Shown: in pieces, positions 5,850 to 58,527 of the stretch
How positions within the stretch are numbered: position 1 is the first letter of the stretch
How the letters are laid out: every line of letters starts with the position of its first letter
Source: an uncultured Alphaproteobacteria bacterium
GTDB taxonomy: Bacteria; Pseudomonadota; Alphaproteobacteria; UBA11222
Length of the DNA: 64,000 nucleotides
Assembly: GCA_947085465.1 (NCBI GenBank)
Contig: CAMTWQ010000047.1
Location: 3,408 to 67,407 of the forward strand
Reading direction: 5' to 3'
The notes under the pieces: generated by a model
The model's database searches: none
The model's input: only the letters and a program-made list of their open reading frames with translations
What the model was told of the DNA's origin: nothing
Translations under genes and position numbers: made by a program

Positions 5850-5925
5850 TGCTGCGGTAGCTCAGTGGTAGAGCACCCCCTTGGTAAGGGGGAGGCCGAG
5901 AGTTCAATCCTCTCCCGCAGCACCA
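5850..5925 (+). tRNA. tRNA-Thr (anticodon GGU)
   Basis: Cloverleaf read by hand: acceptor GCUGCGG/CCGCAGC, D-arm GCUC-AGUGGUA-GAGC, anticodon stem CCCCC/GGGGG with loop UUGGUAA, T-arm GAGAG-UUCAAUC-CUCUC, encoded CCA. Confidence 0.88.
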
Positions 5926-5968: not shown

Positions 5969-6045
5969 TGGTACCACCGCCTGGGGTCGAACCAGGGACC
6001 TCTTGATCCACAATCAAGCGCTCTAACCAGCTGAGCTACGGCGGC
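5969..6045 (-). tRNA. tRNA-His (anticodon GUG), alphaproteobacterial type lacking G-1, with G1·U72 and A73
   Basis: Reverse complement folds as acceptor GCCGCCG/CGGUGGU (two G·U pairs), D-arm GCUC-AGCUGGUUA-GAGC, anticodon stem CUUGA/UCAAG with loop UUGUGGA, T-arm CCUGG-UUCGACC-CCAGG, discriminator A, CCA. The -1 position is T, not G. Confidence 0.82.
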
Positions 6046-21198: not shown

Positions 21199-21468
21199 CT
21201 AACCGAAAAGATCAGAATGCGATCCCGTCCGGTATAGGCGGATTTCAGTTTCGGTCACATCGTAAATCAAAAGCCAATCAGACTCGATATGGCATTCCCA
21301 AAGCCCCGCATAGTTGCCAGAAAGCTTGTGCGGCCTGCACCGCAGGGGTAACGGCTTGTCTTCTAAAAGAAGGTCAAGAATAGTCTGAAATTTCTTCATC
21401 GCCTTGTCGCGTTTCGCTGCGCGCTTAAAATCCCTGCGAAATGAGTTGGCGGCGAAGGCTGTTTTCAC
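21199..21468 (-). CDS. yafQ: type II toxin YafQ (RelE/ParE superfamily mRNA interferase)
   Basis: HIESDWLLIYDVTETEIRLYRTGSHSDLFG closely parallels the E. coli YafQ C-terminus. Overlaps the dinJ stop by 4 nt. Confidence 0.8.
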   Translation of the reverse strand: MKTAFAANSFRRDFKRAAKRDKAMKKFQTILDLLLEDKPLPLRCRPHKLSGNYAGLWECHIESDWLLIYDVTETEIRLYRTGSHSDLFG

Positions 21469-21719
21469 TTCAGCAAATCGTCCATCAGATGCTGCGATGT
21501 CTTATATCGCTTGCCTTTGCCTTCCTTGACCTCTTTAATCGCGCGGCGCGTGGCCTTGTTGGGCATGCGCACATCAAACGGTAGGCCCTTGTTCAAAACC
21601 ACCTGACTTAAAAAAATCGATATCGCATCCGTGGTATTCATGCCGAGAGTGCGAAATATTTTTTCGGCGGTGGCCTTTAGTGCCGGTTCAACGCGGACGT
21701 TGACGACTTTTGTCTTCAT
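21465..21719 (-). CDS. dinJ: antitoxin DinJ (RelB/DinJ family)
   Basis: MKTKVVNVRVEPALKATAEKIFRTLGMNTTDAISIFLSQVVLNKGLPFDVRMPN resembles DinJ. Start at the internal ATG at 21719. Confidence 0.8.
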   Translation of the reverse strand: MKTKVVNVRVEPALKATAEKIFRTLGMNTTDAISIFLSQVVLNKGLPFDVRMPNKATRRAIKEVKEGKGKRYKTSQHLMDDLLK

Positions 21720-21911
21720 GGGGATTGGTTCTTTCGGCTTCACGTATTACGATAGATACACATTGTAACACAACAGAAAGCTAAAATCAACCGGTTGCTT
21801 AAGGGCCACTTGCCAATATCGCCCCAGACGGCGTATCTAACCGCCACGCTCTGGTTGCCAGGCGAAGCAAGTTCCGCCGTAACCCAAATCAACATCTGGT
21901 AGCATTGCATT

Positions 21912-39139: not shown

Positions 39140-40246
39140 TTACACAGCCTTGCGAGGCTGTATATTACCCGCACTAAGTTTGCCGCGCCAATGATCAAGT
39201 GTGGCAGTGGCGCGTTCCCCGGTCAATGTGTCAAACAGGCTGCATATCGTTTGCAGGCGGGCGGCCGGAACCGCCTTGCCCGTGCGGCCGCGCTCCAGCA
39301 GCAACATTGCCGTGGCGAACTGGCTCCGGTCCGCCCCGATGGCCCGGCAAAGCACCGCCAGGCCTTGCCCTTCGCTCTCAAAGGAGAGATTAGCCACCGT
39401 ATTTGTTTCAAGGCCGGTAAGCGCCGCCATGCCCTCAAGGAATAAATTCAGCCGCTTTTCGCGCAAAAATGCAATGACGCGCGTGACGCTCAATTCACCG
39501 CTTGCGTGCATCTTGGCGATTAACGCCTGCGCCTTGTTATTTGTCGCCGCAGCGGCAGGCGCCTCAGAGGGAGGCGTTTGAAAATCGCCAAGGGCGCCAT
39601 CTATGGATGCGGGATCGATCTCGAATCTTGAGAGTATTTCTTTTTTCAGCGCCGCCGAAACGAATGACAACATTTTTTGGGCCAGCTTTTCAGGAATATC
39701 CGCGCGCTCAACCAACGGCCCGCGCAGCTCTTTCAGGGACTCGCTTTCTGCAACCATATACGCCATCGCCGTCTCGGCAATTTCCGCACTCTGGTTCTTG
39801 GCCAGCGCCACCAGCACATCTGGCTCCCCGGTATTAACCAGCACAGTGGTCACCGCCGCGGTAATCCCCGAACGCATTGCGGTGCGCATACGGTGCTCAC
39901 GGGTTTTCCCGTTTATGATCGCAATCAAATCCTGCTCGTCCAGCAGCGGGCTATGCGCGATAACCGGTGACGCCACCAATATTTCATCGAGCATCAGCGC
40001 CTGAATCAGCTCTTTCGGGGCAAGCGGGCTATGCGCCAGCCGCTCAGCCAGGCGGCCCCTGACTTCTACTTCAAACGAGCGCGTTAGCCGGATGAGAATA
40101 TGCCCGGCAATTTCTTTTTCTTCCGGTTTAAGTGTGTGATTTGGCGTGAGGCAAAGATCAATAAGCTCATCTGACAATGCTTCCCGTGACTGCTGACTTA
40201 CATCGGCGGCAAGCGCGACGAGTCTCTGAATCCCCGCGTCACTCAT
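39140..40246 (-). CDS. DUF2336 domain protein (paralog 1)
   Basis: All-helical 368-aa protein, paralogous to the adjacent gene, with shared blocks EKEIAGHILIRL, DEILVASPVIAHSPLL-EQDLI and ASGELSVTRVIAFLRE. Confidence 0.65.
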   Translation of the reverse strand: MSDAGIQRLVALAADVSQQSREALSDELIDLCLTPNHTLKPEEKEIAGHILIRLTRSFEVEVRGRLAERLAHSPLAPKELIQALMLDEILVASPVIAHSPLLDEQDLIAIINGKTREHRMRTAMRSGITAAVTTVLVNTGEPDVLVALAKNQSAEIAETAMAYMVAESESLKELRGPLVERADIPEKLAQKMLSFVSAALKKEILSRFEIDPASIDGALGDFQTPPSEAPAAAATNNKAQALIAKMHASGELSVTRVIAFLREKRLNLFLEGMAALTGLETNTVANLSFESEGQGLAVLCRAIGADRSQFATAMLLLERGRTGKAVPAARLQTICSLFDTLTGERATATLDHWRGKLSAGNIQPRKAV

Positions 40247-40252
40247 AAACTA

Positions 40253-41377
40253 TCACGCTGCGTTACTTGCAGGCTGGGCCCCGCCCGTCTTGGTGCGCCA
40301 ATGCTCAAGCACCGCATGCGCGCGGTCCTCGGTGAGTGAATCAAACAGCCGGCAAACATATTGCAGATGGCTGGCTGGCGCCGGATCGCCGCCTTGCGCC
40401 TGTTTCAGCAGCAGGGCAGCCGAAATGAATTGGCCGCGATCAGCGCCCGCCGCACGGCAAATTACGGCAAGCCCCTTGTCCTCGCTTTCAGATGCAAAAT
40501 GGGTAAGGTTTTGGACATCGCATCTGACAAGGACAGCCATGCCTTCATAGAATAGCTGTAAATGCCTTTCGCGCAAAAATGCGATCACCCGGGCGACATT
40601 CAATTCACCGCTGGCGTGCAATTTGTCAATGAGCGTGGCGGCCTTATTACTGGAGTCTTTCAATCGCGCCGCGCCCGTGAGCGCCTGCTCCTGATTTACC
40701 TGACCAAGCGCACGATCGATAGTTTCAGGCTCAACGTCAAAATTGAGTAGAATATGCCGCCTTAATTCAGCGGATACGAATGCGAGCATTTTCTGCGCCA
40801 GTTGCGGCGGCAAATCAGCGCGCGCAATGATCGCTTCTTGCAAACTTGCGCGCGACCTGCTCTCCTCAACCATATACGCCATCGCAGCCAATGCAATTTC
40901 CGCAGTCGCGTTATTGATCAGTACACTTATCACATCAGGCTCGCGCTCAAACACAAGAGCGTCACTTACAGCGGCGGAAATCCCGGGACGCCCCGCAACA
41001 ATCAGGCGGTGCGCGCGGGTTTTATTTTTTATTACGTCAATGAGATCCTGCTCATTAAGCAGCGGGCTTTGCGCAATTACTGGCGCTGCTACGATAATTT
41101 CATCCATTGCCAAAGCGTAAATCAATTGTTTGGGCGCGATACCGGACACCGCAAGCTTTTCAGCAAGCTGGGCGCGCATATCAATTTCAAACTCACGCAG
41201 CAGACGGATAAGTATCTCGCCGGCCAGTTGATTTTCCTCAGGGCTGAGTTGATACTTGCCTTCATTGCCGGTAAGGCATAGTTCGCAAACGCGCTCGGAT
41301 AACGCACGCCTTGCCCGGGCGCTGTTATCCCGCGCCAGCGAAATAAGCTCAGTGATCACGGAATTATCCATGCCCAT
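40253..41377 (-). CDS. DUF2336 domain protein (paralog 2)
   Basis: 374 aa, roughly 35-40% identical to paralog 1 in a tandem arrangement, with shared blocks ENQLAGEILIRL, DEIIVAAPVIAQSPLLNEQDLI and ASGELNVARVIAFLRE. Confidence 0.65.
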   Translation of the reverse strand: MGMDNSVITELISLARDNSARARRALSERVCELCLTGNEGKYQLSPEENQLAGEILIRLLREFEIDMRAQLAEKLAVSGIAPKQLIYALAMDEIIVAAPVIAQSPLLNEQDLIDVIKNKTRAHRLIVAGRPGISAAVSDALVFEREPDVISVLINNATAEIALAAMAYMVEESRSRASLQEAIIARADLPPQLAQKMLAFVSAELRRHILLNFDVEPETIDRALGQVNQEQALTGAARLKDSSNKAATLIDKLHASGELNVARVIAFLRERHLQLFYEGMAVLVRCDVQNLTHFASESEDKGLAVICRAAGADRGQFISAALLLKQAQGGDPAPASHLQYVCRLFDSLTEDRAHAVLEHWRTKTGGAQPASNAA

Positions 41378-44293: not shown

Positions 44294-44455
44294 TTAAAAC
44301 AAGTCAGCCAAACTCGTAAAGAGCGCCAACACCTCCCCGCCAAGCAGGGTCACCGCACCGATAATAACCAGCGCAATACCCCCGGCTATGAGGGCGTATT
44401 CAATCGCCGTTGAGCCCGAGGCGTCGCGTAAGACTCTAGAGCATGTTCGGATCAG
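44294..44455 (-). CDS. flp: Flp/Fap family type IVb pilin (orphan)
   Basis: The ...RVLRDASGSTAIEYALIAGGIALVIIGAV... motif is a Flp prepilin leader plus processing site (G/ST AIEY). Start uncertain: in-frame CTG at 44455, or the ORF-track ATG at 44518, which adds a non-pilin-like extension. Confidence 0.6.
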   Translation of the reverse strand: MIRTCSRVLRDASGSTAIEYALIAGGIALVIIGAVTLLGGEVLALFTSLADLF

Positions 44456-44708
44456 ACGGAATGGCCAGTGGCCATGTGTATCAATCAGATCAGAAATGGC
44501 TCTGGAAAATAAAAACATCGTCGCATCCTCCGGCCTTGTCTCGCCCGCACTCCAGCACCGTTTGCCGGGGTTGAGCGGACAATCCCCATCCAGCTAGGCA
44601 TTCGCGGCCAAGCTTTCAATAACAGGCGTCACAGCCATGCATATTAGCGCAGAAGATTTAACGCTAAATGTACGCCTAAAACCCGTAAAGAAATTATTTA
44701 CCGGCGGC

Positions 44709-47896: not shown

Positions 47897-47980
47897 ATGA
47901 GCTGTAGAAACTTGGGTGCAACATTGGGAATGGGTGAGGTGACGAAACGTCTCCTGCAAGCATCCGGAAATCCAGGTGGC

Positions 47981-48832
47981 ATGCGCCGTGCGCTCGTCAT
48001 CGCGGCGCTTGCTTGCGCCAGTGGCGCGGCCAGCGCGCAGGAAACCATTATTATCGGCAATCCAAGGCCGCTGCCCAGCATTGAAGTGAATCTTGACGCG
48101 ATTGGACTGGCTTCGGGGCACGGCTCTCGCGCGCCCTATTCGGCAACCACCCTGCAAAATTCACGCACACCGCGCCTGGACACGCGGCCCGATTTACTGC
48201 CGCGCAATTTGGCGAATATGCCGCAGGCCCGCGCCGCCACATCGCAACAACTACCGCCGCCAATAGCTACAACCGGCACGCCGGTTGCCGTGCAACGGGA
48301 TGCATTTTTGCCGATGTCGCCGCAGCAACCCACATCCCAACCAAGGGCGCTGGAAGCGATGGCGCCGCCACCGCCAATCCCCAGCGTACGCCCGCCGCCC
48401 GGCGCGAAACGGCCAGAGATTTTGAGCGGCGCGCCGCCGCCCGTATCAATAATTGCGGCTACACCTCCCGAAGCATCGCCCGCGCCGCCACAAAGAGTTG
48501 CGGCCATGCCCTCGTCACCTGTGGCGGCGGCTGGGAAATTCCTGTTGTTCGATCCCGGCAGCGCAGACTTGAGCGCCGAGGCCGCAGGGCAGCTCAGTGC
48601 GCTGGTCGCAAGCCTGCGCGAAGGCGGCGCGCGGGTGCAGCTAAAATCCCACGCGAGCGGCAGTGATGATGGCGCGCAAGCGCGACGCATATCGCTGAAA
48701 CGCGCCCTGGCGGCGCGCGCGGTATTGATGGAGCAAGGCATCGACAGCACCCGCATCGACGTGCGCGCGCTCGGCCCCGTCGCGGATGGCGGCCCACCCG
48801 ACCGAATCGAAGTGATATTGCTCTCGCAATGA
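47981..48832 (+). CDS. secreted Pro-rich protein with C-terminal OmpA-like peptidoglycan-binding domain
   Basis: Signal peptide MRRALVIAALACASGAASA|QE, a long Pro/Ala-rich linker, and a C-terminal block (FDPGSADLSAEAAGQLSALV...RRISLKRALAARAVLMEQGI) consistent with an OmpA-like fold. Its stop overlaps the next gene's start (ATGA). Confidence 0.7.
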   Translation: MRRALVIAALACASGAASAQETIIIGNPRPLPSIEVNLDAIGLASGHGSRAPYSATTLQNSRTPRLDTRPDLLPRNLANMPQARAATSQQLPPPIATTGTPVAVQRDAFLPMSPQQPTSQPRALEAMAPPPPIPSVRPPPGAKRPEILSGAPPPVSIIAATPPEASPAPPQRVAAMPSSPVAAAGKFLLFDPGSADLSAEAAGQLSALVASLREGGARVQLKSHASGSDDGAQARRISLKRALAARAVLMEQGIDSTRIDVRALGPVADGGPPDRIEVILLSQ

Positions 48833-50055
48833 GCGCGCCATCGGATCAGGCCCAGCTTGCAGCGCCGCCGCCGGACGGCGCGGTTGCCACGATTCCATTG
48901 GAGACGTTCTCGGGCCAGCGGCGGTTTTTGATCCGCATGGGGGTATTTCTGGCCGCCACCACTGCTGTGGCGGTTGCGCTTACCGGGCCGCTCGGCCATG
49001 CCTTTGCCGTCAACCCGGCGTTAAACGGGCTGATCATCGCAGTGTTGCTGTTTGGCGTATTTTATAATTTCCGGCAGGTGCTGCAATTAGGCCCGGAAAT
49101 CGAATGGATTGAAGCGTTTCAGCGTGACAGTGCAGGCCTGCCCGCAGCGCCGCCTATTTTGCTGGCGCCGATGGCGGTCATGCTGGGCGAACGCCAGGGC
49201 CGTTTGCGGCTCTCGGCGCCGGCCACCCGCGCAATTCTCGATTCAGTTTTCATCCGGCTGGATGAATCGCGCGACAACTCGCGCTATATGATCGGGCTGC
49301 TGATTTTTCTTGGCCTGCTCGGCACCTTTTGGGGGCTGATCGCAACATTGAGTTCAATTGGCGCCACGATCCAGAATCTCTCCGTTGAGGGGGGCGACAT
49401 CACTGCCGTCTTTAATCAGATGAAGGCCGGGCTGCAAACGCCATTAAGCGGCATGGGCACGGCGTTTTCTTCATCGCTTTTTGGCCTAAGCGGATCATTG
49501 GTGCTGGGCTTTCTCGATCTCAACGCCTCGCAGGCGCAGAACCGTTTTTACAATGAATTCGAAGAATGGATTTCCGGCCTGACACGGCTGGGTTCGGGCA
49601 GTGCGCTGAGCGAAGGCGAAACTTCGGTTCCGGTTTATATCACCGCCCTGCTGGAACAAACCGCCGATAGTGTCGAGCGGCTGCAAAATGTGATCGCGCG
49701 CAATGAGGACAGCCGTGCGGCCGGCAATCAGGCGCTCATGTCATTGGCGACGCAACTGGCTACCCTCACCGATTCCATGCAGAACGAACAGAACATGCTG
49801 CGACGGCTGGCCGATAATCAGAGCGAATTGCGGCCTGTTCTGGAGCGCCTGGCGCGTCAGCGTGAAACCGGCGAGGGCGCCCTTGACATCGCCAGCCGTC
49901 AGCATCTGCGTAATATGGATGTGCAGCTATCGCGCCTGGTGCAGGATGTGGCGGATGGCAGGGAACGGGCGTTAAGCGAACTTCGATCAGAAATAAAACT
50001 GCTGACCCGAACCGTTGCTGGATTGGACGGCGAGCGGCGCAAGGATTCCTCCTGA
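48829..50055 (+). CDS. MotA/TolQ/ExbB-family proton-channel protein with ~170-aa C-terminal coiled-coil cytoplasmic tail
   Basis: Four predicted TM helices. The TM3 signature IFLGLLGTFWGLIATL matches the ExbB/TolQ LGLLGTVWGI motif. The C-terminal third is heptad-like and Q/E/R/L-rich. Translationally coupled on both sides. Confidence 0.75.
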   Translation: MSAPSDQAQLAAPPPDGAVATIPLETFSGQRRFLIRMGVFLAATTAVAVALTGPLGHAFAVNPALNGLIIAVLLFGVFYNFRQVLQLGPEIEWIEAFQRDSAGLPAAPPILLAPMAVMLGERQGRLRLSAPATRAILDSVFIRLDESRDNSRYMIGLLIFLGLLGTFWGLIATLSSIGATIQNLSVEGGDITAVFNQMKAGLQTPLSGMGTAFSSSLFGLSGSLVLGFLDLNASQAQNRFYNEFEEWISGLTRLGSGSALSEGETSVPVYITALLEQTADSVERLQNVIARNEDSRAAGNQALMSLATQLATLTDSMQNEQNMLRRLADNQSELRPVLERLARQRETGEGALDIASRQHLRNMDVQLSRLVQDVADGRERALSELRSEIKLLTRTVAGLDGERRKDSS

Positions 50056-51125
50056 TGACGGTGCGCGGCATCCGTGCGCGGCGCGCAGCGTTAGATATTT
50101 GGCCGGGCTTTGTTGATGCGCTGGCCAACCTGCTGCTGGTTGTCACGTTTGTGCTGTCCGTATTTATTCTGGCGCATTTTTATCTTTCGCAAGCATTGTC
50201 TGGACGTGATGACGCCCTGCGCGAACTCAATCGCAAGGCGCGGGATCTGGCGGAATTACTGGCGCTGGAAAAACAGGCGGGCGGCGAAATGCGCAGCGAG
50301 GTGGCGCGGCTTTCCGCCGCATTGCAAAACACCACCCGCGATCTGGATGCGCGCAGCGCCAAAATCGCCGAAACGGATCTAACCATTGCCCGCTTGCGCG
50401 ATCTTGTTCTGCAACGCGAAGGCGGTATCGCGGCCCTGGAAAAAGATATCGGCGCGGCACGCGGGGCGCTTTCCTCAGAAAAAGCAATCTCCAGCGCCGC
50501 CACCGCGCAAATCGTGCTGCTAAACGAACAGATTGCAGAATTGCGCGCACAGCTCTCGCGGGTAGAAGCCTCGCTGGATGCTGCTGAAATCAAGGACACC
50601 AGCAATCAGGTGATTATCGCCGAGCTTGGCGCGCGCCTGAACCAGGCTCTGGCCGCGAAGGTTGAAGAACTGGCGCGCTACAGATCGGATTTTTTTGGCC
50701 GCTTGAGGGACGTGTTGAGCAATACGCCAGGCGTGCGGGTCGAGGGCGACCGTTTTGTATTTCAATCGGAAGTGCTGTTCGCCTCCGGCTCGGCGGATAT
50801 TGGCGAGGCGGGAAAGCTTCAATTGCAAAAAGTTGCGGCAGCCTTGCTCGAAGTCGCGCCGCAAATTCCCGGCGAACTGAAATGGGTGTTGCGCGTTGAT
50901 GGGCATACGGACACGGTGCCGATTGTGACGCAACGCTTTCCGTCCAATTGGGAATTGTCGGCGGGGCGCGCAATTTCGGTAGTGAATTTTTTCATTGCTG
51001 AAGGCGTGCCGTCAAACCGGCTGGCGGCGGCGGGCTTTGGCGAGTTTCAACCGCTTGAGCCTGGCGATAACGAGGCGGCGCGCAACCGCAACCGCCGCAT
51101 CGAGCTAAAACTCACCGAGCGCTGA
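50055..51125 (+). CDS. MotB-like protein: N-terminal TM with conserved Asp, ~190-aa periplasmic coiled coil, C-terminal OmpA/MotB peptidoglycan-binding domain
   Basis: TM WPGFVDALANLLLVVTFVL parallels the MotB WKIAYADFMTAMMAFF proton-relay segment. The OmpA motif is GHTDTVPI...NWELSAGRAISVVNF...NRNRRIELKL. Start overlaps the upstream stop (TGATG). Confidence 0.75.
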   Translation: MTVRGIRARRAALDIWPGFVDALANLLLVVTFVLSVFILAHFYLSQALSGRDDALRELNRKARDLAELLALEKQAGGEMRSEVARLSAALQNTTRDLDARSAKIAETDLTIARLRDLVLQREGGIAALEKDIGAARGALSSEKAISSAATAQIVLLNEQIAELRAQLSRVEASLDAAEIKDTSNQVIIAELGARLNQALAAKVEELARYRSDFFGRLRDVLSNTPGVRVEGDRFVFQSEVLFASGSADIGEAGKLQLQKVAAALLEVAPQIPGELKWVLRVDGHTDTVPIVTQRFPSNWELSAGRAISVVNFFIAEGVPSNRLAAAGFGEFQPLEPGDNEAARNRNRRIELKLTER

Positions 51126-51875
51126 ACCTGTTTGTTTTAGCAGCAGCACGACATATAGCCCAGCGGCAAGCGCCGGACCGAATGGAAATTCAGCCGCCAG
51201 AGCATGATCTGGCTTCCTGCCCACCCGCCAGCCCAGCGCAAACACAATGCCAAAAACTCCTGACAGCATCATGAAGCTGGCAAGGCCGGCGGTCCCGCAC
51301 CAGATTCCCGCCATGGCGAAAAATTTAACATCCCCAAGCCCCAGCGCCTCGCGGCCCTTGAGGCGCGTAAATATGAAGCGCAATCCCAACGCAACGCCTG
51401 CCGCGATTGCCGCGCCGCCTGCCGCATCCATCCACTCAGGAAACCGGTAAGCGCCGCCAAGCAGCGCCAAAGCCATCAGCACTGCGTCGGGAATGATCAT
51501 AAATTCGAGATCAACCGCAATCACCACCAGCAGGCCGGCAGCCAGCAGCGCCAGCAACACCGCATCCAAACCAGGCCCCGCCGCCATGACGGCCAGCATG
51601 CTTGAGGCCGCCGCCGCAAGCTCAATCAGAGGATATCGCCGCCCAATGTTCGCGCCGCATTGCGCGCAACGGCCTCGGTTCCAGAGATAAGATAACAAGG
51701 GAGCCAAATCGCGCGCGCGCAAAGGCTTTGCGCAAGCAGGACAACAAGAGCGGCCAGCAATTACCGGCAAGCCGCGCGGCAGCCGGTAGGCGAGCAGGCT
51801 GGCGAAGCTTCCCATGCACAGACCAAAAAGCGCGGCTATTCCGGTCAGCAGCCAATCCGGCATCTCCGCCAGCAT
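51105..51875 (-). CDS. A24-family prepilin peptidase (PilD/GspO-type with N-terminal zinc-binding domain)
   Basis: CPACAKPL...RCAQCG tetra-Cys motif, catalytic Asp contexts (DLEFMIIPD ... GLGDVKF), polytopic membrane protein. Confidence 0.85.
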   Translation of the reverse strand: MLAEMPDWLLTGIAALFGLCMGSFASLLAYRLPRGLPVIAGRSCCPACAKPLRARDLAPLLSYLWNRGRCAQCGANIGRRYPLIELAAAASSMLAVMAAGPGLDAVLLALLAAGLLVVIAVDLEFMIIPDAVLMALALLGGAYRFPEWMDAAGGAAIAAGVALGLRFIFTRLKGREALGLGDVKFFAMAGIWCGTAGLASFMMLSGVFGIVFALGWRVGRKPDHALAAEFPFGPALAAGLYVVLLLKQTGSALGEF

Positions 51876-51884
51876 CGCGCGCTG

Positions 51885-52895
51885 CTACCGGCGCAATTGG
51901 TTGGTGAGAAGCGATACTTTCTCCGTCAGCCATGGCCGGATGCCGCCCGCGTCATGTTGATCCGCTGCAATATACAGCGCAGCGCCAAGCACTGAGACGC
52001 ATGACACCAACACCATTGTAGTGATCAATGCGGACGCCGGACGCCGCCACCAGCCGACCGGCAACTGATGCGAGCGGCGCAAACTTAATTGCCGGGCTTC
52101 TTTCACCGCCGCGCGCACATGTTTGGGCAGCACTTGCATGGCGCCTTCGGCATAGGCGGCAAGCAAGGACTTGTCTCCCAGAATATTCATCCAGCGCGGA
52201 TTGCCCCTGCCTGCCCGCGCCAGGGCCTCCAGCGCATTATCCGCGAATACTTCCATGGCGGCGTCTGGATTGCGGCTAGCCATCTTTACCCGGTAACGGG
52301 CATAGGCAGTGGCTTCTGAATCGGACAGCGGCTTCAATCCGAACGAAAAATTGATGCGCTGGGCAACCTGGCGCAAATCATGCCGCTGCAAAAGATTGTC
52401 GAGTTCCGGCTGTCCAAATAAAACGATTTGCAGCAACTTGCGTTTTTCGGTTTCTAGATTTGACAGCAGCCGGATCGATTCCAGGCCCGTTTCACCCAGC
52501 GCTTGCGCTTCGTCAACAAGCACCACCGCATTCACGCCGTCGGCGTGTTTTTGAATCAAGAAACGGTTCAGGCAATCATAAATATCCGCCGCTGATCCAA
52601 CATCCAATCCAAATTCGCGGCAAATGGCGCGCGCCACCCACTCGGCGTCATTGCGCGGATTATTCAGATAAGCGATCACAACATCATTGCCAGCCGCACT
52701 CAGCAGCATCCGGCACAGCAGCGTTTTCCCCGTGCCGACCTCGCCCGACACCTTGACGATGCCCTCGCCGCGCAAGATGGCGTAGCGCACTGACTCATAA
52801 ACTTCCTGATGCACCATTCCCGGAAAATACAGCCCCGTGTCAGGCGTCAGGGAAAACGGATGTTCGGCAAGATTAAAATGCGTCAAATAAGGCAT
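51885..52895 (-). CDS. ExeA/GspA/MshM-like AAA+ ATPase with C-terminal TM anchor
   Basis: Walker A GEVGTGKT and Walker B VVLVDEAQ; the typical ExeA-family N-terminus (FNLAEHPFSLTPDTGLYF); C-terminal TM ALITTMVLVSCVSVLGAAL. Confidence 0.8.
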   Translation of the reverse strand: MPYLTHFNLAEHPFSLTPDTGLYFPGMVHQEVYESVRYAILRGEGIVKVSGEVGTGKTLLCRMLLSAAGNDVVIAYLNNPRNDAEWVARAICREFGLDVGSAADIYDCLNRFLIQKHADGVNAVVLVDEAQALGETGLESIRLLSNLETEKRKLLQIVLFGQPELDNLLQRHDLRQVAQRINFSFGLKPLSDSEATAYARYRVKMASRNPDAAMEVFADNALEALARAGRGNPRWMNILGDKSLLAAYAEGAMQVLPKHVRAAVKEARQLSLRRSHQLPVGWWRRPASALITTMVLVSCVSVLGAALYIAADQHDAGGIRPWLTEKVSLLTNQLRR

Positions 52896-52896
52896 A

Positions 52897-54159
52897 TTAT
52901 TTCACCGTTAGAAACGCCATGCGCTGGCGCACGGTTTCTACTGGAATTTGCGCATCCTGTGCGCGGGTGGCGAGATCAAGGCATTGTGCGTAAAACCGCA
53001 ACGCCGTCTCCGGCTGGCCCCATTTGTCGTAAACCACCGCCAGATTGAAAGCATATTTCGCGTTGCGCGGTTCAAGCGCCACAGCGCGTTCCAGATGCCG
53101 CGCGGCGGGCTCATATTCTCCGCGCGCCAGATGCAGCATCCCGACTTGCGCTGGCACCAGCGCATTTTGCGGATTCAGCCTTATCAGGCGCTGCAACTGC
53201 TCCAGCGCTTGCGTGGAGTTTTGCGTGGAGAGCAGCGCAAGTAAATTCGTCAACGCCCACTCGTCGCCGGGATACGCCGCCAGCACCGCCTCAAAGGCGG
53301 CTAGCGCTTGTTGCGTGCGCTGCATTTTTTGCAGCGCCGCCGCCCGGCCGAGCAAGGCAAGCCGGTCATTTGGGTCATCCCGCAAAATTTGCGCGTAAAT
53401 ATGTTCCGCCTGCGCCGGTTCCCCACCCTCAAGCAGGCGCAACGCATTTTCATAGCGCGCCCGTGCCATATCTGTGTCGTTGGTGATTTGCATGCCAGGA
53501 CGCTCCTGCGCCAGCGCCGCAGCATCGCCCTCATGCTTTAGATCGACCGGCGGGCCGAGGGCAGCCATTTCACGCCCGGCCAATTGCGCATCGACGAATT
53601 TTTCCACACCCGCATCGCTGACATGTTTTGGCGCACGCACGGGTGGCGGTTCAGATGGCGCGCTATCCGCGCCAATACGTTGTGGCGGCTGAACAGGCTC
53701 AGGCGGAACGGTATCAGGTTCAGCAGGCGCCACCGGCGCACTTTCTGCACTTTGATCGGGGGAGATGGCTTCACTAGGCGGCAAACTCTCCACGGCCTCC
53801 GGCTGAACTTCCGGCGCAACTGCTTCAGAGGGCGTTGCCGCTGCGGGTTCGGGTAGCTGCGCCAGTTGCGGCGGCAAAGGTTCTAGCGGCGCCTCGGGCA
53901 TCAATAACAGCCCGGCGGATATGATCCCTGTAACCCCTACCAGGGACAGTAATATCCAGCGGCTCATGCGTCCGCCGGGGGCGCTGCTTTTGCTGGAGGA
54001 AAGTGTGTGCGGCGTCATGCGCCCGGCAACAGACGGCGCCGCGCCTGGCGCGGTTACGCTCGCAGCCTGCCCCAGCGCCCCAGATGATTTTAGGGGGGCC
54101 TGAGCGCCCTTTTCGCGCTGCTGCGTCGCCTGGGTAAGCGCCTTGTAAAGCAGGCTCAT
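52897..54159 (-). CDS. TPR-repeat membrane protein (MshN-like)
   Basis: Cytoplasmic N-terminus, one TM (WILLSLVGVTGIISAGLLL), a Pro/Glu-rich periplasmic linker and C-terminal TPR repeats. A 1-nt gap separates it from the ATPase gene. Confidence 0.65.
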   Translation of the reverse strand: MSLLYKALTQATQQREKGAQAPLKSSGALGQAASVTAPGAAPSVAGRMTPHTLSSSKSSAPGGRMSRWILLSLVGVTGIISAGLLLMPEAPLEPLPPQLAQLPEPAAATPSEAVAPEVQPEAVESLPPSEAISPDQSAESAPVAPAEPDTVPPEPVQPPQRIGADSAPSEPPPVRAPKHVSDAGVEKFVDAQLAGREMAALGPPVDLKHEGDAAALAQERPGMQITNDTDMARARYENALRLLEGGEPAQAEHIYAQILRDDPNDRLALLGRAAALQKMQRTQQALAAFEAVLAAYPGDEWALTNLLALLSTQNSTQALEQLQRLIRLNPQNALVPAQVGMLHLARGEYEPAARHLERAVALEPRNAKYAFNLAVVYDKWGQPETALRFYAQCLDLATRAQDAQIPVETVRQRMAFLTVK

Positions 54160-54256
54160 TCCTGATTCCCGCCCGATCCTATGCTTGCGCTTTGCTCAAG
54201 CGCCTGATTCGCGTGCCATTAATACATGAACCGTTCGGCCAGGATGCGCAAGAGCA

Positions 54257-56197
54257 TCAGGCATGCCAACGCTGCTTCCAGGCCTGAAACATCAGCACAT
54301 TCCAGATCAGATAGGGGCTTTCGCTGCCTGCTTGCAGCCGTCGCCAGGCCGTGTGCACCGCCTTGGCGTTAAAGAACCCGTCCGCTTCCAGCGCTTGCGG
54401 CGCCAGCAACGCCTCGGCCCAGCCCCTGAGCGGACCACACAGCCATTGCTGCAAGGGAATGCCAAAACCGGCCTTTGGCCGGGCCATCAAATGGCGCGGC
54501 ACATAAGCGTCGAGTATTTGCCGCAATATCCATTTGCCCTCTCCGCCACGCAATTTCATCGATAATGGCAGCGTCCAGGCAAATTCAATCAACCGGTGAT
54601 CGAGCAACGGCTCGCGCGCCTCCAGGCTCACCGACATGCTCGCCCTGTCCAGCTTGGTCATGATATCGCCTGGCAGATAGGCCAGCATGTCATGAAACTG
54701 CATTTGCGGCACAAAAGGCCCGGTTTGCAGCGCCACCGCCGGTTGTGCGGGCAGGCGCTCATTGGCTTCATGGCCGCCTGCGAAAAGACGGTGCGGGCGG
54801 TCCCCCTGCAACAACAGCAGCTGATACATTTCCATCGGGTTACGCGCACCGAGCGCGCGCGCGAGCTTATGCACCTTGTCGCCCACTTGCCGGGGACGAA
54901 AGGCGGCAGGAACCATTTGCGCCGCCTTGTCCCATACGCCAACCGGAACGCCTCGCAACGCCGCCATCAGCGCACGGCGCATTGGCAAGGGTATCGGGCC
55001 CACCGCGCGCCAGATGCGATCAAACCACACATACCGATTATAGCCCGCGAACAGCTCGTCGCCGCCATCGCCCGATAACGCGACAGTCACATGCTTGCGG
55101 GTGATCGCAGAGACAAGATGGGTAGGCAATTGCGAGGAGTCGGCAAACGGCTCGTCATACATATCCGGCAATTTCGGAACCAGCGCCAGCGCATCGGCTG
55201 CGGCAAAGTAATGCTCGGCATGCTCAGTCCCCAGATGCGCAGCGACTTTGCGCGCATGCGCCGCCTCATCAAAACCATCTTCTGAAAATCCAATGGTAAA
55301 GGTGCGGATGGGGCGTGTGCTTTGCGCCTGCATCAGGGCTGTGACCAGGCTCGAGTCAATGCCGCCGGATAAAAACGCGCCTAGCGGCACATCGGCCACC
55401 ATGCGCCGCTTCACCGCATCCTTAAGCAAGGCCTCTAGCTGCATGATTGCTTCGCGATCATCCATTCTTGCGGCGGCGGCGCCATTGCGCGCCACTTCCG
55501 CCATGGACCAATAAACGCGCTGTGTGATGCGCCCGCCCGCATCCAATGTCAGTATGGTTGCGGGTTCAAGCTTATGCACCGCCTGATAGATGCTGTTAGG
55601 CGCCTGAATATAGGAATAGGCCAGCAGATCGCCAATTGCATCCCGGTCAATTTGCGGACGCCAGCCGTCAAAGGCGTGCAACGCCTTTAACTCCGATCCA
55701 AACAGAAACAAATTATCCGTGTACGTCCAGTATAGCGGCTTAACGCCGATCCGGTCTCGTATCAGGCTGAGCGCATGCTCCTGATTATCCCACACCGCAA
55801 TGGCGAACATGCCAAGCAGCTTGTGCACCATGGCCTCGACGCCCCAGCAGGCAAAGCCTTCGAGGATAACCTCGGTGTCGGAATGGCCGCGAAAAAGCGC
55901 GCCGCGTTTTTCTAATTCCTGCCGCAATTCGGTAAAATTATACACCTCGCCATTATAGGCGATGATGAAGCGCCCATTCGCAGAACGCATGGGCTGCGCG
56001 CCAAGCGGCGAAAGATCAATGATCGACAGCCGCCGATGCCCGATGCCCACGCCCTGGCTGGCGTCGGCCCACACGCCGCCATCATCCGGCCCGCGATGCA
56101 ACAGACGGTCAGCCATGCGGCGCGCCTGATCCTGGAGCTGATCAAACCCTGCGCTGCGGCCCCGGCGGCGGTCAACAAAACCGGCTAGTCCGCACAT
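54257..56197 (-). CDS. asnB: asparagine synthase (glutamine-hydrolysing) family amidotransferase
   Basis: Start MCGLAGF (Cys2 nucleophile after Met removal) and a synthetase-domain SGGIDSS PP-loop; 646 aa. Start set at the ATG at 56197. Confidence 0.88.
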   Translation of the reverse strand: MCGLAGFVDRRRGRSAGFDQLQDQARRMADRLLHRGPDDGGVWADASQGVGIGHRRLSIIDLSPLGAQPMRSANGRFIIAYNGEVYNFTELRQELEKRGALFRGHSDTEVILEGFACWGVEAMVHKLLGMFAIAVWDNQEHALSLIRDRIGVKPLYWTYTDNLFLFGSELKALHAFDGWRPQIDRDAIGDLLAYSYIQAPNSIYQAVHKLEPATILTLDAGGRITQRVYWSMAEVARNGAAAARMDDREAIMQLEALLKDAVKRRMVADVPLGAFLSGGIDSSLVTALMQAQSTRPIRTFTIGFSEDGFDEAAHARKVAAHLGTEHAEHYFAAADALALVPKLPDMYDEPFADSSQLPTHLVSAITRKHVTVALSGDGGDELFAGYNRYVWFDRIWRAVGPIPLPMRRALMAALRGVPVGVWDKAAQMVPAAFRPRQVGDKVHKLARALGARNPMEMYQLLLLQGDRPHRLFAGGHEANERLPAQPAVALQTGPFVPQMQFHDMLAYLPGDIMTKLDRASMSVSLEAREPLLDHRLIEFAWTLPLSMKLRGGEGKWILRQILDAYVPRHLMARPKAGFGIPLQQWLCGPLRGWAEALLAPQALEADGFFNAKAVHTAWRRLQAGSESPYLIWNVLMFQAWKQRWHA

Positions 56198-56284
56198 TTT
56201 ATCTTGTGCATGTAAGTTCCAATTGATTCCGCGCGTGAGAGTAGGCCAACCAGTGGCCAACCGCTATAGTAGCAACTAGAGCAG

Positions 56285-56420
56285 CCTGCGATTGGCTTGC
56301 GAGAATTAAATAGGGTCAGACTCGATTTAGGATAATGCCAGATATGACAGCAAGTTAAGAAATTAAATCGAGTCTGACCCTATTTAATTCTTGACCCTAT
56401 TTAATTCTCAAGGTGCACCT
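56285..56420. repeat. AT-rich palindromic MITE-like element (left copy)
   Basis: A ctagagcagcctgcgatt head, then a perfect 22-bp inverted repeat aaatagggtcagactcgattta / taaatcgagtctgaccctattt around a 32-nt loop, then an aattcttgaccctatttaatt tail. Confidence 0.7.
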
Positions 56421-57542
56421 GTGACAGGCTCTAAACCGGATGAAAGCCAGCAGAACGGCGTTACCCCTCAATTCTGGGCGGGGAAGCGGGTGCTGCTGAC
56501 CGGGCATACGGGATTTAAGGGAAGCTGGCTGTCGATCTGGCTCGCCAAAATGGGGGCGGAGATATTTGGCTATGCCCTTGCCCCCGAGCATCCCGAAGAT
56601 ATGTTTGCAGCCCTTGATCTTCCGGCGCTGCTGCCGCAATTGCGTCATCGCATCGGCGATGTGCGCGATCTGGGCGCTTTGACAGAGCTTGTGCGCGAAG
56701 CGCGGCCAGAAATAATCATTCACATGGCGGCGCAGCCATTGGTGCGGCGCTCCTACCGGCTGCCCATAGAGACCTTTGCAGTGAACGCCATGGGCACGGC
56801 GCATGTGCTGGAGGCAGCCCGCACTTTTGACGGTGTCAGCGCCATTGTCATCGTCACCACTGACAAAGTGTATGAAAATCTTGGCCATGACCTGGCCTAT
56901 GGCGAGGGCGACCGGCTGGGCGGGCATGACCCCTACAGCGCCAGCAAGGCGATGGCCGAGATGGTCACCAGCGCCTACCGCCGCTCGTTTTTCAGCACCG
57001 GCGTCCCAGGGGGCCTTCCGGCCACGGCCACGGCGCGCGCCGGCAATGTGATCGGCGGCGGCGACTGGAGCGAGGATAGGCTGATCCCCGACGCCATGCG
57101 CGCCTGGCGCAAAGGCGGGGAATTGATCCTGCGCAATCCCCATGCGAACCGGCCTTGGCAGCATGTGATCGATCCATTGCGCGGTTATCTGATGCTGGCG
57201 CAAGCGCTGGTTAAAGATGGCCCGCGCTATGCCCAGGCATGGAATTTTGGCCCTGAAATGCGCGCCGTTTACGAGGTGCAGGAAGTCATCACCCGCCTGG
57301 CGGACGTCATGCGCGCGCGCGGCCTGGATGCGCAATGGCGCGTTGAGGCGCAACCCGGCCAGCCACACGAAGCCATGCTGCTGCAACTGGATTGCCGCAA
57401 GGCGCGCGAGGAATTGCAGTGGCGCTCAATGCTTGATCTTGATGCAGCCCTTTCACACACCGCCGCGTGGTATCACGCGCAAATCAGCGGCGCCTCTGCG
57501 CAGGCGCTGTGCGAGCTCACGCTCCAGCAAATTGAGAATTAA
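56421..57542 (+). CDS. rfbG: CDP-glucose 4,6-dehydratase-like NAD-dependent epimerase/dehydratase
   Basis: VLLTGHTGFKGSWLSIWL Rossmann/RfbG-type N-terminus, TDKVYEN and YSASK catalytic motifs. Probable GTG start at 56421; the ORF-track TTG at 56391 lies inside the repeat. The stop TAA lies inside the right repeat copy. Confidence 0.8.
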   Translation: MTGSKPDESQQNGVTPQFWAGKRVLLTGHTGFKGSWLSIWLAKMGAEIFGYALAPEHPEDMFAALDLPALLPQLRHRIGDVRDLGALTELVREARPEIIIHMAAQPLVRRSYRLPIETFAVNAMGTAHVLEAARTFDGVSAIVIVTTDKVYENLGHDLAYGEGDRLGGHDPYSASKAMAEMVTSAYRRSFFSTGVPGGLPATATARAGNVIGGGDWSEDRLIPDAMRAWRKGGELILRNPHANRPWQHVIDPLRGYLMLAQALVKDGPRYAQAWNFGPEMRAVYEVQEVITRLADVMRARGLDAQWRVEAQPGQPHEAMLLQLDCRKAREELQWRSMLDLDAALSHTAAWYHAQISGASAQALCELTLQQIEN

Positions 57543-57683: not shown

Positions 57684-58064
57684 TCACGCGGCTTTCTTGC
57701 CGCGCGTGGGGCGAATGAGAATTTCGGCTGGCAGACCAAGTTCTTCATGCAATCGGCGAATCATGGCGATAGACAGGTTGCGTTTGCGGTTCAGAACCTC
57801 TGTTACGCGCGCGCGCGTACCAATGATAGGCTCCAGATCCTTGCGGGTCAGGCCCAGTTGCTCCATGCGGAATTTGATGGCGTCGATGGGGTCGGGCGGG
57901 TCCATCGGGTAATGTTCCGCCTCATAGACATCGACCAATGTCGCCAATATGTCGAGACGATCTCCCGCCGCAGTTCCGCTTTTTGCGCCCCAAAGCTTCT
58001 TGAGGCTAGTTAATGCCCGTTTATAGTCCGCCTCCGAGCGGATCGGTTTTAGTTCAGCCGTCAT
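57684..58064 (-). CDS. higA: HigA-family antitoxin / XRE-type HTH protein
   Basis: C-terminal HTH (LGLTRKDLEPIIGTRARVTEVLNRKRNLSIAMIRRLHEELGL). Overlaps the upstream toxin gene by 11 nt. Confidence 0.72.
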   Translation of the reverse strand: MTAELKPIRSEADYKRALTSLKKLWGAKSGTAAGDRLDILATLVDVYEAEHYPMDPPDPIDAIKFRMEQLGLTRKDLEPIIGTRARVTEVLNRKRNLSIAMIRRLHEELGLPAEILIRPTRGKKAA

Positions 58065-58377
58065 ATTCCACCTTTGTTACGTCAATCCGGTCATAGGACT
58101 TGTGCGAGCCAATCCATTTTATCCAGACGATGCGTTTCTCAAAATCAACAGCCACCACCAGCCGGTAGGCGTTGCCTTTAATGTTGAATACAATCCGCCC
58201 GGCATTTATAACGCTTGCCGTTGCATAAAGGCGCTTGACCTCGGACATATTCTCCCAGTTCGCTTTTTTCACTTCATCGAACCAGGCATCCAGCGCGGCC
58301 TTGACCGCCGGACGATCTTTATGCCCGGTCAGCGATTTGATAAAATCCTGTAAAGTCCGCCGGGCAATAATCCGCAT
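58054..58377 (-). CDS. higB: HigB-family (RelE/ParE superfamily) toxin
   Basis: RIVFNIKGNAYRLVVAVDFEKRIVWIKWIGSHKSYDRID matches the HigB-toxin fold signature (from memory). The toxin precedes the antitoxin, as in higBA. Start at the ATG at 58377. Confidence 0.72.
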   Translation of the reverse strand: MRIIARRTLQDFIKSLTGHKDRPAVKAALDAWFDEVKKANWENMSEVKRLYATASVINAGRIVFNIKGNAYRLVVAVDFEKRIVWIKWIGSHKSYDRIDVTKVEYDG

Positions 58378-58527
58378 CGGACAAATATAGCTTGCACCCA
58401 TTTTGGGCGCAAGGGAAATAAGGTTCCGCCAGAATGAATTTGCGGGTATTCGCCAGCCCCCTACGTTTGCTGCGCAAGCTTCGGAGGACGCTCAGTTTTG
58501 CAACGGTTAAAGGGGGGGTTAAAGGGT

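Follow-up and report, generated by a model that had tools for sequence, protein, structure and literature searches.

Composition of the block

The 64-kb window analysed here, i.e., the whole stretch of 64,000 nucleotides from an uncultured alphaproteobacterium, carries a block of four consecutive open reading frames (ORFs) on the minus strand. In the order of transcription, they encode an AsnB-family amidotransferase, a membrane protein with tetratricopeptide repeats (TPR), an ExeA/MshM-family ATPase and the prepilin peptidase PilD. The spacers are 97 bp (asnB-TPR), 1 bp (TPR-ATPase) and 9 bp (ATPase-pilD). The preliminary description of this DNA, made from the sequence alone, had given the same four genes and spacers; the ORF list bears out the layout, and the domain calls for all four genes agree with Pfam and NCBIfam scans, which covered all called ORFs longer than 93 aa and nearly all of those from 80 aa upward. 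The last three genes (51105-54159) are hereafter called the trio. The block and the features directly upstream of it are as follows.

51105..51875, minus strand: PilD/GspO-type prepilin peptidase (A24) with N-terminal tetra-Cys domain, 256 aa (PF06750 and PF01478)
51885..52895, minus strand: ExeA/GspA/MshM-family AAA+ ATPase, 336 aa (PF13401, AAA_22, 90.6 bits)
52897..54159, minus strand: MshN-like bitopic TPR partner, 420 aa (many TPR Pfam families)
54160..54256, minus strand: asnB-TPR spacer of 97 bp with a conserved motif, candidate promoter/operator of the trio
54257..56197, minus strand: AsnB-family glutamine-dependent amidotransferase, 646 aa (Asn_synthase 373.5 bits, GATase_7 147.6 bits)
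56391..57542, plus strand: CDP-glucose 4,6-dehydratase, divergent from asnB (TIGR02622, 439 vs cut-off 278.45)

The peptidase matches A24_N_bact (PF06750, 91.5 bits) and Peptidase_A24 (PF01478, 47.8 bits), both above the gathering thresholds. When aligned with six relatives, it shares with all of them C45, C48, C70, C73, D122 and the motif GLGD182VK (G181-D182-x-K184), which are invariant across the seven homologues. The marks of A24 peptidases of the PilD/GspO type are present, namely both domains, a pair of catalytic Asp of which the second lies in GxGDxK, and the four Cys, and the A24 prepilin peptidase with N-terminal tetra-Cys domain of the preliminary description is confirmed by the Pfam scores and the invariant Cys and Asp. 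A hydropathy scan indicates a multi-pass protein with approximately five hydrophobic stretches, one of them long. A sequence search of the PDB with PilD gave no match.

The ATPase has a cytoplasmic ATPase domain (residues 1-270) with Walker A (GEVGTGKT) and Walker B (VLVDEAQ) motifs and a single C-terminal membrane helix (285-313), after which only approximately 25 aa remain as a periplasmic tail. The peptidoglycan-binding domain PF01471 of archetypal GspA/ExeA was not matched in this protein by Pfam. Thousands of homologues were found at E <1e-10, with ExeA or MshM as source names. The ATPase shares 44% identity with MshM of a Vibrio MshL-MshM-MshN-MshE locus and 39-48% with 70+ secretin-adjacent homologues. 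Its homology, the two Walker motifs and the adjoining gene for a membrane partner place it in the MshM/ExeA family; NCBIfam has no curated MshM model, and so there is no MshM cut-off against which it could be scored. The only match in a sequence search of the PDB was the phage Mu transposition ATPase MuB (8xvb, E 0.001), which hints at a distant link to MuB/TniB-type AAA+ proteins; no solved ExeA/MshM-family ATPase domain was detectable by this search.

The TPR protein starts with a cytoplasmic N-terminus (MSLLYKAL), followed by a membrane helix (67-89), a linker rich in Pro and Ala that varies in length, and periplasmic TPRs (approximately 225-400). Close homologues are few, only about 28 among 5.8 billion proteins, all within one clade, in which M1, S2 and L4-L8 are invariant. 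BLAST alone detected no similarity of the protein to gammaproteobacterial MshN. An alignment of the TPR clade with gammaproteobacterial MshN by hhalign gave a probability of 97.8% and an E of 8.8e-13 over 182 columns, collinear to the C-termini, but TPR repeats can inflate such matches. The N-terminal motif MS[VL][IL]xxxL is common to the TPR clade and to alpha- and gammaproteobacterial MshN. On these sequence grounds the TPR protein is likely a member of MshN. The resemblance of the ATPase and TPR pair to MshM/MshN, proposed in the preliminary description, is thus upheld by the identity to MshM, the secretin-adjacent loci, the profile alignment and the common N-terminal motif.

The preliminary description had also likened the ATPase and the amidotransferase to the markers of XrtA/PEP-CTERM exopolysaccharide loci, and this did not hold. 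The XrtA models are the best NCBIfam matches for both proteins, TIGR03015 being the sole one for the ATPase, and PrsT is the second-best for the TPR protein, i.e., the three proteins have distant homology to TIGR03015, TIGR03108 and PrsT. All three scores are, however, far under the curated cut-offs (206.6 vs 324.5 for TIGR03015, 602.6 vs 816.9 for TIGR03108 and 49.3 vs 312.2 for PrsT), and no exosortase (EpsH/XrtA), chain-length determinant or sugar transferase/exopolysaccharide (EPS) gene was found among the window ORFs scanned. Membership in the XrtA/PEP-CTERM group is rejected. A degenerate exopolysaccharide module of this type, with TIGR03015, PrsT and TIGR03108 as the counterparts of the ATPase, TPR protein and amidotransferase, is largely refuted and very improbable, the genomic partners in relatives being PilD, PilT, secretin, MshE and GspF. 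As a lesson for annotation, best matches to XrtA/PEP-CTERM models that stay under the cut-off are no evidence of an exosortase system for ExeA-like ATPases or AsnB paralogues.

Gene neighbourhoods in relatives and the place of AsnB

Approximately twenty ATPases 69-79% identical to that of the window were found in metagenome-assembled alphaproteobacteria. In L001/L002, L088 and L089, the gene order is CDP-glucose 4,6-dehydratase (divergent), AsnB, TPR protein, ATPase, PilD, and then one or two further ATPases, which pass the PilT/PilU model TIGR01420 (466.9 and 405.4 vs cut-off 319.1). In L085/L086 (ATPase 78% identical), PilT also follows PilD, and a thiamine pyrophosphate (TPP)-dependent enzyme stands instead of AsnB. 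Thus, in the relatives with ATPases 70-79% identical, TPR-ATPase-PilD continues into PilT, with or without PilU; PilT lies directly 3' of PilD in L001, L085, L088 and L089, and the window is the only member seen without it. The window pilD is 31-69% identical to the PilD genes 3' of the ATPase in L085, L001, L088, L089 and L007. The identities of the genes, the intactness of their catalytic motifs and the retention of gene order in relatives are established.

More distant loci connect the trio with complete pili. L007, a metagenome-assembled genome of Rhodospirillaceae with an ATPase 51% identical, has the order TPR-ATPase-PilD-secretin-unknown-N_methyl pilin-unknown-MshE(MshEN)-GspF, which is a complete MSH-like pilus operon headed by TPR-ATPase-PilD. 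The gene directly upstream of its TPR gene, at 6445-8535 of L007 (plus strand), encodes a GT41 glycosyltransferase (O-GlcNAc-transferase-like) that contains TPRs; this pilus module thus adjoins a glycan enzyme in a second case. In Limimonas halophila, secretin, pilins, PilD, TPR protein, ATPase and a PilT-family ATPase are found within one locus. Eighty genome loci (L005-L084) were retrieved with the ATPase family and their 10-kb flanks examined. A secretin match was present in 71 of the 80, mostly directly beside the ATPase gene, and most of these 71 also have an MshE-type ATPase, in classical MshL-MshM-MshN-MshE or beta-type orders. An A24 peptidase within 10 kb of the ATPase was found with a PilD hidden Markov model (HMM) only in the alphaproteobacterial L005, L006 and L007; the gamma- and betaproteobacterial MSH-type loci of this set have none within this distance, in agreement with a published survey (PMC6668835).

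The block is considered as related to type IVa pili, and not to a type II secretion system (T2SS) or polysaccharide export, because it continues into PilT/PilU in relatives. The preliminary description had left a choice between a type IV filament and polysaccharide export for a partial or non-canonical module; the partial, non-canonical and pilus-related character stands, and polysaccharide export falls. A T2SS accessory set (GspA-GspB-GspO) with no relation to pili would suit the membership of the ATPase in the ExeA/GspA family, the source name "ExeA family protein" of relatives, the common enzyme family of GspO and PilD and the existence of GspA forms without a periplasmic region (PMC9239104). 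This reading is nevertheless quite improbable, since the block of the relatives leads into retraction ATPases, L007 has MshE with an MshEN domain, the closest homologues outside the clade are MshM in MSH-type loci, and the partner of the ATPase is a TPR protein, not a GspB with HR domain. No T2SS-B Pfam match was found in the block proteins.

The window itself has no pilus core. Pfam/NCBIfam ORF scans revealed no secretin, T2SSE ATPase, GspF/platform protein or exosortase in the 64 kb, tblastn of the window with secretin, T2SSE and pilin sequences of relatives found nothing, and a regular-expression search with the class III signal motif detected no N-methyl pilin. PilT is absent from the window by tblastn, and with it the TIGR01420 retraction module. 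The statement in the preliminary description that secretin, pilin, GspE and exosortase are lacking from the window therefore proved correct, apart from the orphan Flp pilin that it had placed 7 kb off, which is real.

44294..44518, minus strand: orphan Flp/Fap pilin (PF04964, 49.9 bits) with a G/STAIEY Tad-type processing motif

There are no Tad/Cpa genes anywhere in the window. The Flp pilin is presumably a Tad-type substrate of a TadV/CpaA-type peptidase, and is not expected to be one for the window PilD with its N-terminal domain.

These absences raise the possibility that the block is a decaying remnant, left without present function after the loss of PilT and the pilus core. The missing PilT, which follows PilD in every sampled relative, the convergent gene that overlaps pilD by 21 bp, and the lack of any core gene in 64 kb would all fit decay. 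On the other side, all ORFs are intact with conserved catalytic residues, and the genes of type IVa pili are usually dispersed among several loci (PMC6668835). Codon comparison with strain-level contigs, 98% identical, also counts against decay. The ATPase differs from both L093 and L094 by the same 10 synonymous and 3 non-synonymous codons, and the TPR gene and pilD have 20 synonymous and 11 non-synonymous, and 9 synonymous and 8 non-synonymous changes, respectively. These differences are mostly synonymous or balanced, well under the approximately 3:1 non-synonymous excess expected under neutrality, and purifying selection appears to act on the trio. A functionless remnant is accordingly given little credence.

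An assembly artefact was considered and rejected, because contiguous housekeeping genes lie on both flanks of the block and a separate contig of 1,967 bp, L094, which stems from a different sample, runs collinear with it across the pilD junction, at 98.2% identity, extending 28 bp beyond the pilD stop into the convergent gene. An exact-sequence look-up of the window ATPase gave no match; look-ups of a 100%-identical TPR protein and a 99%-identical ATPase led only to contigs of 1.5-3 kb, which confirmed the pilD junction only.

The remaining gene of the block, asnB, could be extended to a TTG at 56260, and its start is assigned to the ATG at 56197 because the N-terminus MCGLAGF then carries the Cys nucleophile of class II amidotransferases. 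AsnB passes TIGR01536 (493.4 vs cut-off 267.1) and has the MCG nucleophile and a PP-loop, FLSGGIDSS. Its homologues in Magnetospirillum molischianum and Azospirillum soli (55-56% identical) are found among glycosyltransferases, NAD-dependent epimerases/dehydratases and an ABC exporter, i.e., in polysaccharide clusters without pilus genes. The divergent pair of dehydratase and asnB is kept in L001, L088 and L089, with 67-70% identity. In the 97-bp asnB-TPR spacer, the motif TCATGTATTAA is located at 54219-54229 (minus strand), approximately 60 bp upstream of the TPR start. It is exact upstream of the TPR gene in L001, L088 and L089, and in L085, which has a different upstream gene, it is recognisable in the imperfect form TGATGCATTAG. 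It occurs once in the window, vs 0.04 occurrences expected by chance. The conservation of TCATGTATTAA suggests that the trio has its own promoter or operator at this site. No terminator-like site was detected in the spacer, and a promoter/terminator scan stayed at background level.

AsnB is probably a separate neighbour involved in glycan biosynthesis and not a member of the pilus trio, because a TPP enzyme replaces it in L085, the closest multi-gene relative, its homologues occur in polysaccharide clusters, and the spacer motif is conserved. For the same reasons the single four-gene operon of the preliminary description is doubtful. The strongest form of the operon idea holds that the four genes and the divergent dehydratase are one unit, in which an amidated or deoxy sugar glycosylates a pilin handled by PilD and the MshM/N-like pair. 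The asnB-TPR-ATPase-PilD order with divergent dehydratase, kept in the window, L001/L002, L088 and L089, the absence of a terminator before the trio and the GT41 glycosyltransferase beside the L007 operon speak for such a unit, as does the need for the AsnB-like WbpS in forming the amidated uronic sugar of a protein-linked glycan (PMC6025236). It is still unlikely. L085/L086 have a TPP enzyme in the position of asnB, the sampled clade is narrow so that synteny may be inherited and not selected, asnB homologues lie in ordinary polysaccharide clusters, the window block has no oligosaccharyltransferase or glycosyltransferase, and the motif conserved ahead of the TPR gene suggests that the trio has a promoter of its own. 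AsnB resembles WbpS in its family, its intact Cys nucleophile and PP-loop, the glycosyltransferase/epimerase clusters of its homologues and the sugar-nucleotide dehydratase next to it; it differs in that only one sugar gene adjoins it, and the likeness is one of family and setting, not of direct sequence comparison.

Proposed function and known systems

The trio is best explained, with moderate confidence, as a unit of three accessory genes belonging to an MSH-like type IVa pilus, detached from the pilus core and standing beside a separate glycan-modification unit. In this model, PilD would act at the inner membrane, cleaving prepilins and probably also N-methylating them. The MshM/ExeA-like ATPase, anchored in the membrane, would bind the conserved cytoplasmic N-terminus of the MshN-like protein, and the periplasmic TPR domain of the latter may reach the outer-membrane secretin or the wall around it, and aid in secretin assembly or stability. 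The genes of the pilus core, those for secretin, assembly ATPase, platform protein and pilins and in this case for PilT as well, would have to lie elsewhere in the genome, and asnB with the divergent CDP-glucose 4,6-dehydratase would form a small glycan-modification unit of its own, syntenic with the trio by chance in the clade.

The model follows the precedents of GspA-GspB and TadD/PilF, and the ATPase-TPR interaction and the role of the pair at the secretin are inferred by analogy with them. GspA-GspB act in secretin insertion or assembly through peptidoglycan, and GspA variants devoid of the periplasmic region have longer partners (PMC9239104). TadD, a protein that Tad secretin assembly requires, is homologous to MshN (PMC6668835).

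Several points weigh against this explanation. Deletion of mshM or mshN in V. cholerae leaves surface MSHA pili at wild-type levels (PMC4624765), and because these mutants keep their pili the secretin-assembly role of MshM/MshN is drawn from analogy only. The profile match of the TPR protein with MshN could be inflated by the similarity of repeats to each other. Neither the 64 kb nor, in the closest relatives, the 10 kb around the block include a secretin, pilin, assembly ATPase or platform gene. Adjacency to asnB is kept in four of the five sampled lineages, and with no terminator before the trio, co-transcription and a functional link between them are possible.

Among known systems, the closest is the MSHA pilus of Vibrio, Aeromonas and Shewanella, where a gene for an ExeA-like ATPase (44% identity) also adjoins that for a bitopic TPR protein with the same N-terminal motif and a collinear C-terminal TPR domain. 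MSHA pili use PilT, which fits the link of the block with PilT in relatives. The window locus differs in that the pair is in reversed order, with the TPR gene first, and that the ATPase has an added C-terminal membrane helix. It also differs in having a prepilin peptidase directly after the pair, which surveyed MSH loci lack (PMC6668835; our own PilD HMM search of 80 loci). The pair is, moreover, detached from mshL, mshE, mshG and mshA, whereas MSH is almost always a single locus (PMC6668835), and its host is an alphaproteobacterium, a class not listed with MSH in that survey. By the MacSyFinder definition of MSH (PMC6668835), the window offers only an mshM-like gene, with the peptidase adjacent, and the L007 locus has all five kinds of gene plus PilD.

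GspA-GspB (ExeA-ExeB) share with the window pair the ATPase family with a single membrane helix, and the bitopic partner with a linker and a periplasmic domain; published variants that combine a longer partner with a GspA lacking the periplasmic region come near to it (PMC9239104). The window ATPase is distinguished by the lack of PF01471, its partner by TPRs in place of the GspB HR domain, and the loci of relatives by PilT/PilU and MshE-type genes in place of gspC-M. As for XrtA/PEP-CTERM loci, the differences are the scores under curated cut-offs, the absence of exosortase/EPS machinery from the window, and the pilus-gene context in relatives. The locus is a modest variation on MshM/MshN plus PilD, not an exosortase-type module or a novel type of system.

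A bolder and rather unlikely extension is that Rhodospirillales-like alphaproteobacteria carry a distinct MSH-like type IVa branch, in which MshN-MshM would be hard-wired to PilD and often to PilT, with the trio of the window clade as an autonomous unit accompanied by the amidotransferase/dehydratase pair, which would supply a pilin glycan. If true, it would break the reported rule that MSH loci have no peptidase and form a single locus, and would provide a testable link of MshM/MshN to pilin maturation and retraction, beyond secretin assembly. MshM and MshN are mandatory markers of MSH with an unclear role, and piliation survives their deletion in V. cholerae (PMC4624765). A lineage that couples the pair tightly to PilD and PilT, separable from the secretin, would thus give a comparative handle on its role, and the finding extends MSH-like systems to Alphaproteobacteria. 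Otherwise the locus is a case of ordinary scattered pilus genetics.

Other features of the window

The remaining window is core chromosome. It includes hisD, a murA-like gene, miaB, phoH, lnt, metK and the rimP-nusA-infB-truB-pnp genes, as well as clpB, prfA-prmC, ispG, ptsP, lysC, grx, efp, suhB and genes for acyl-CoA dehydrogenases. PADLOC gave no match for the four genes of the block.

Convergent to pilD is a three-gene cluster at 47897-51125 (plus strand) encoding, besides an OmpA-like protein of 311 aa, a membrane protein similar to MotA/ExbB and a peptidoglycan-binding protein similar to MotB; the cluster overlaps pilD by 21 bp. The MotA/ExbB-like protein (408 aa) has a long coiled-coil tail, no Pfam match and a weak match to ZorA (55.9 bits). 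The MotB-like protein matches NF006543 (434 bits, cut-off 305) and ZorB3 (83.8 bits). This stator-like MotA/MotB pair has no ZorC/D partners, and has no relation to the block in other genomes.

Two toxin-antitoxin pairs, both of type II, are encoded in the window. A YafQ/RelB pair at 21199-21743 (minus strand) is inserted between infB and truB, and HigB with an HTH antitoxin, at 57684-58401 (minus strand), adjoins the CDP-glucose dehydratase gene where synteny with relatives breaks. Tandem DUF2336 paralogues of 368 and 374 aa are located at 39140-41377 (minus strand) and have weak matches to SpbR (122 and 146 bits, respectively; cut-off 400). The only Rfam matches in the window are two divergent tRNA genes 50 bp apart, at 5851-5922 (plus strand) and 5972-6045 (minus strand).

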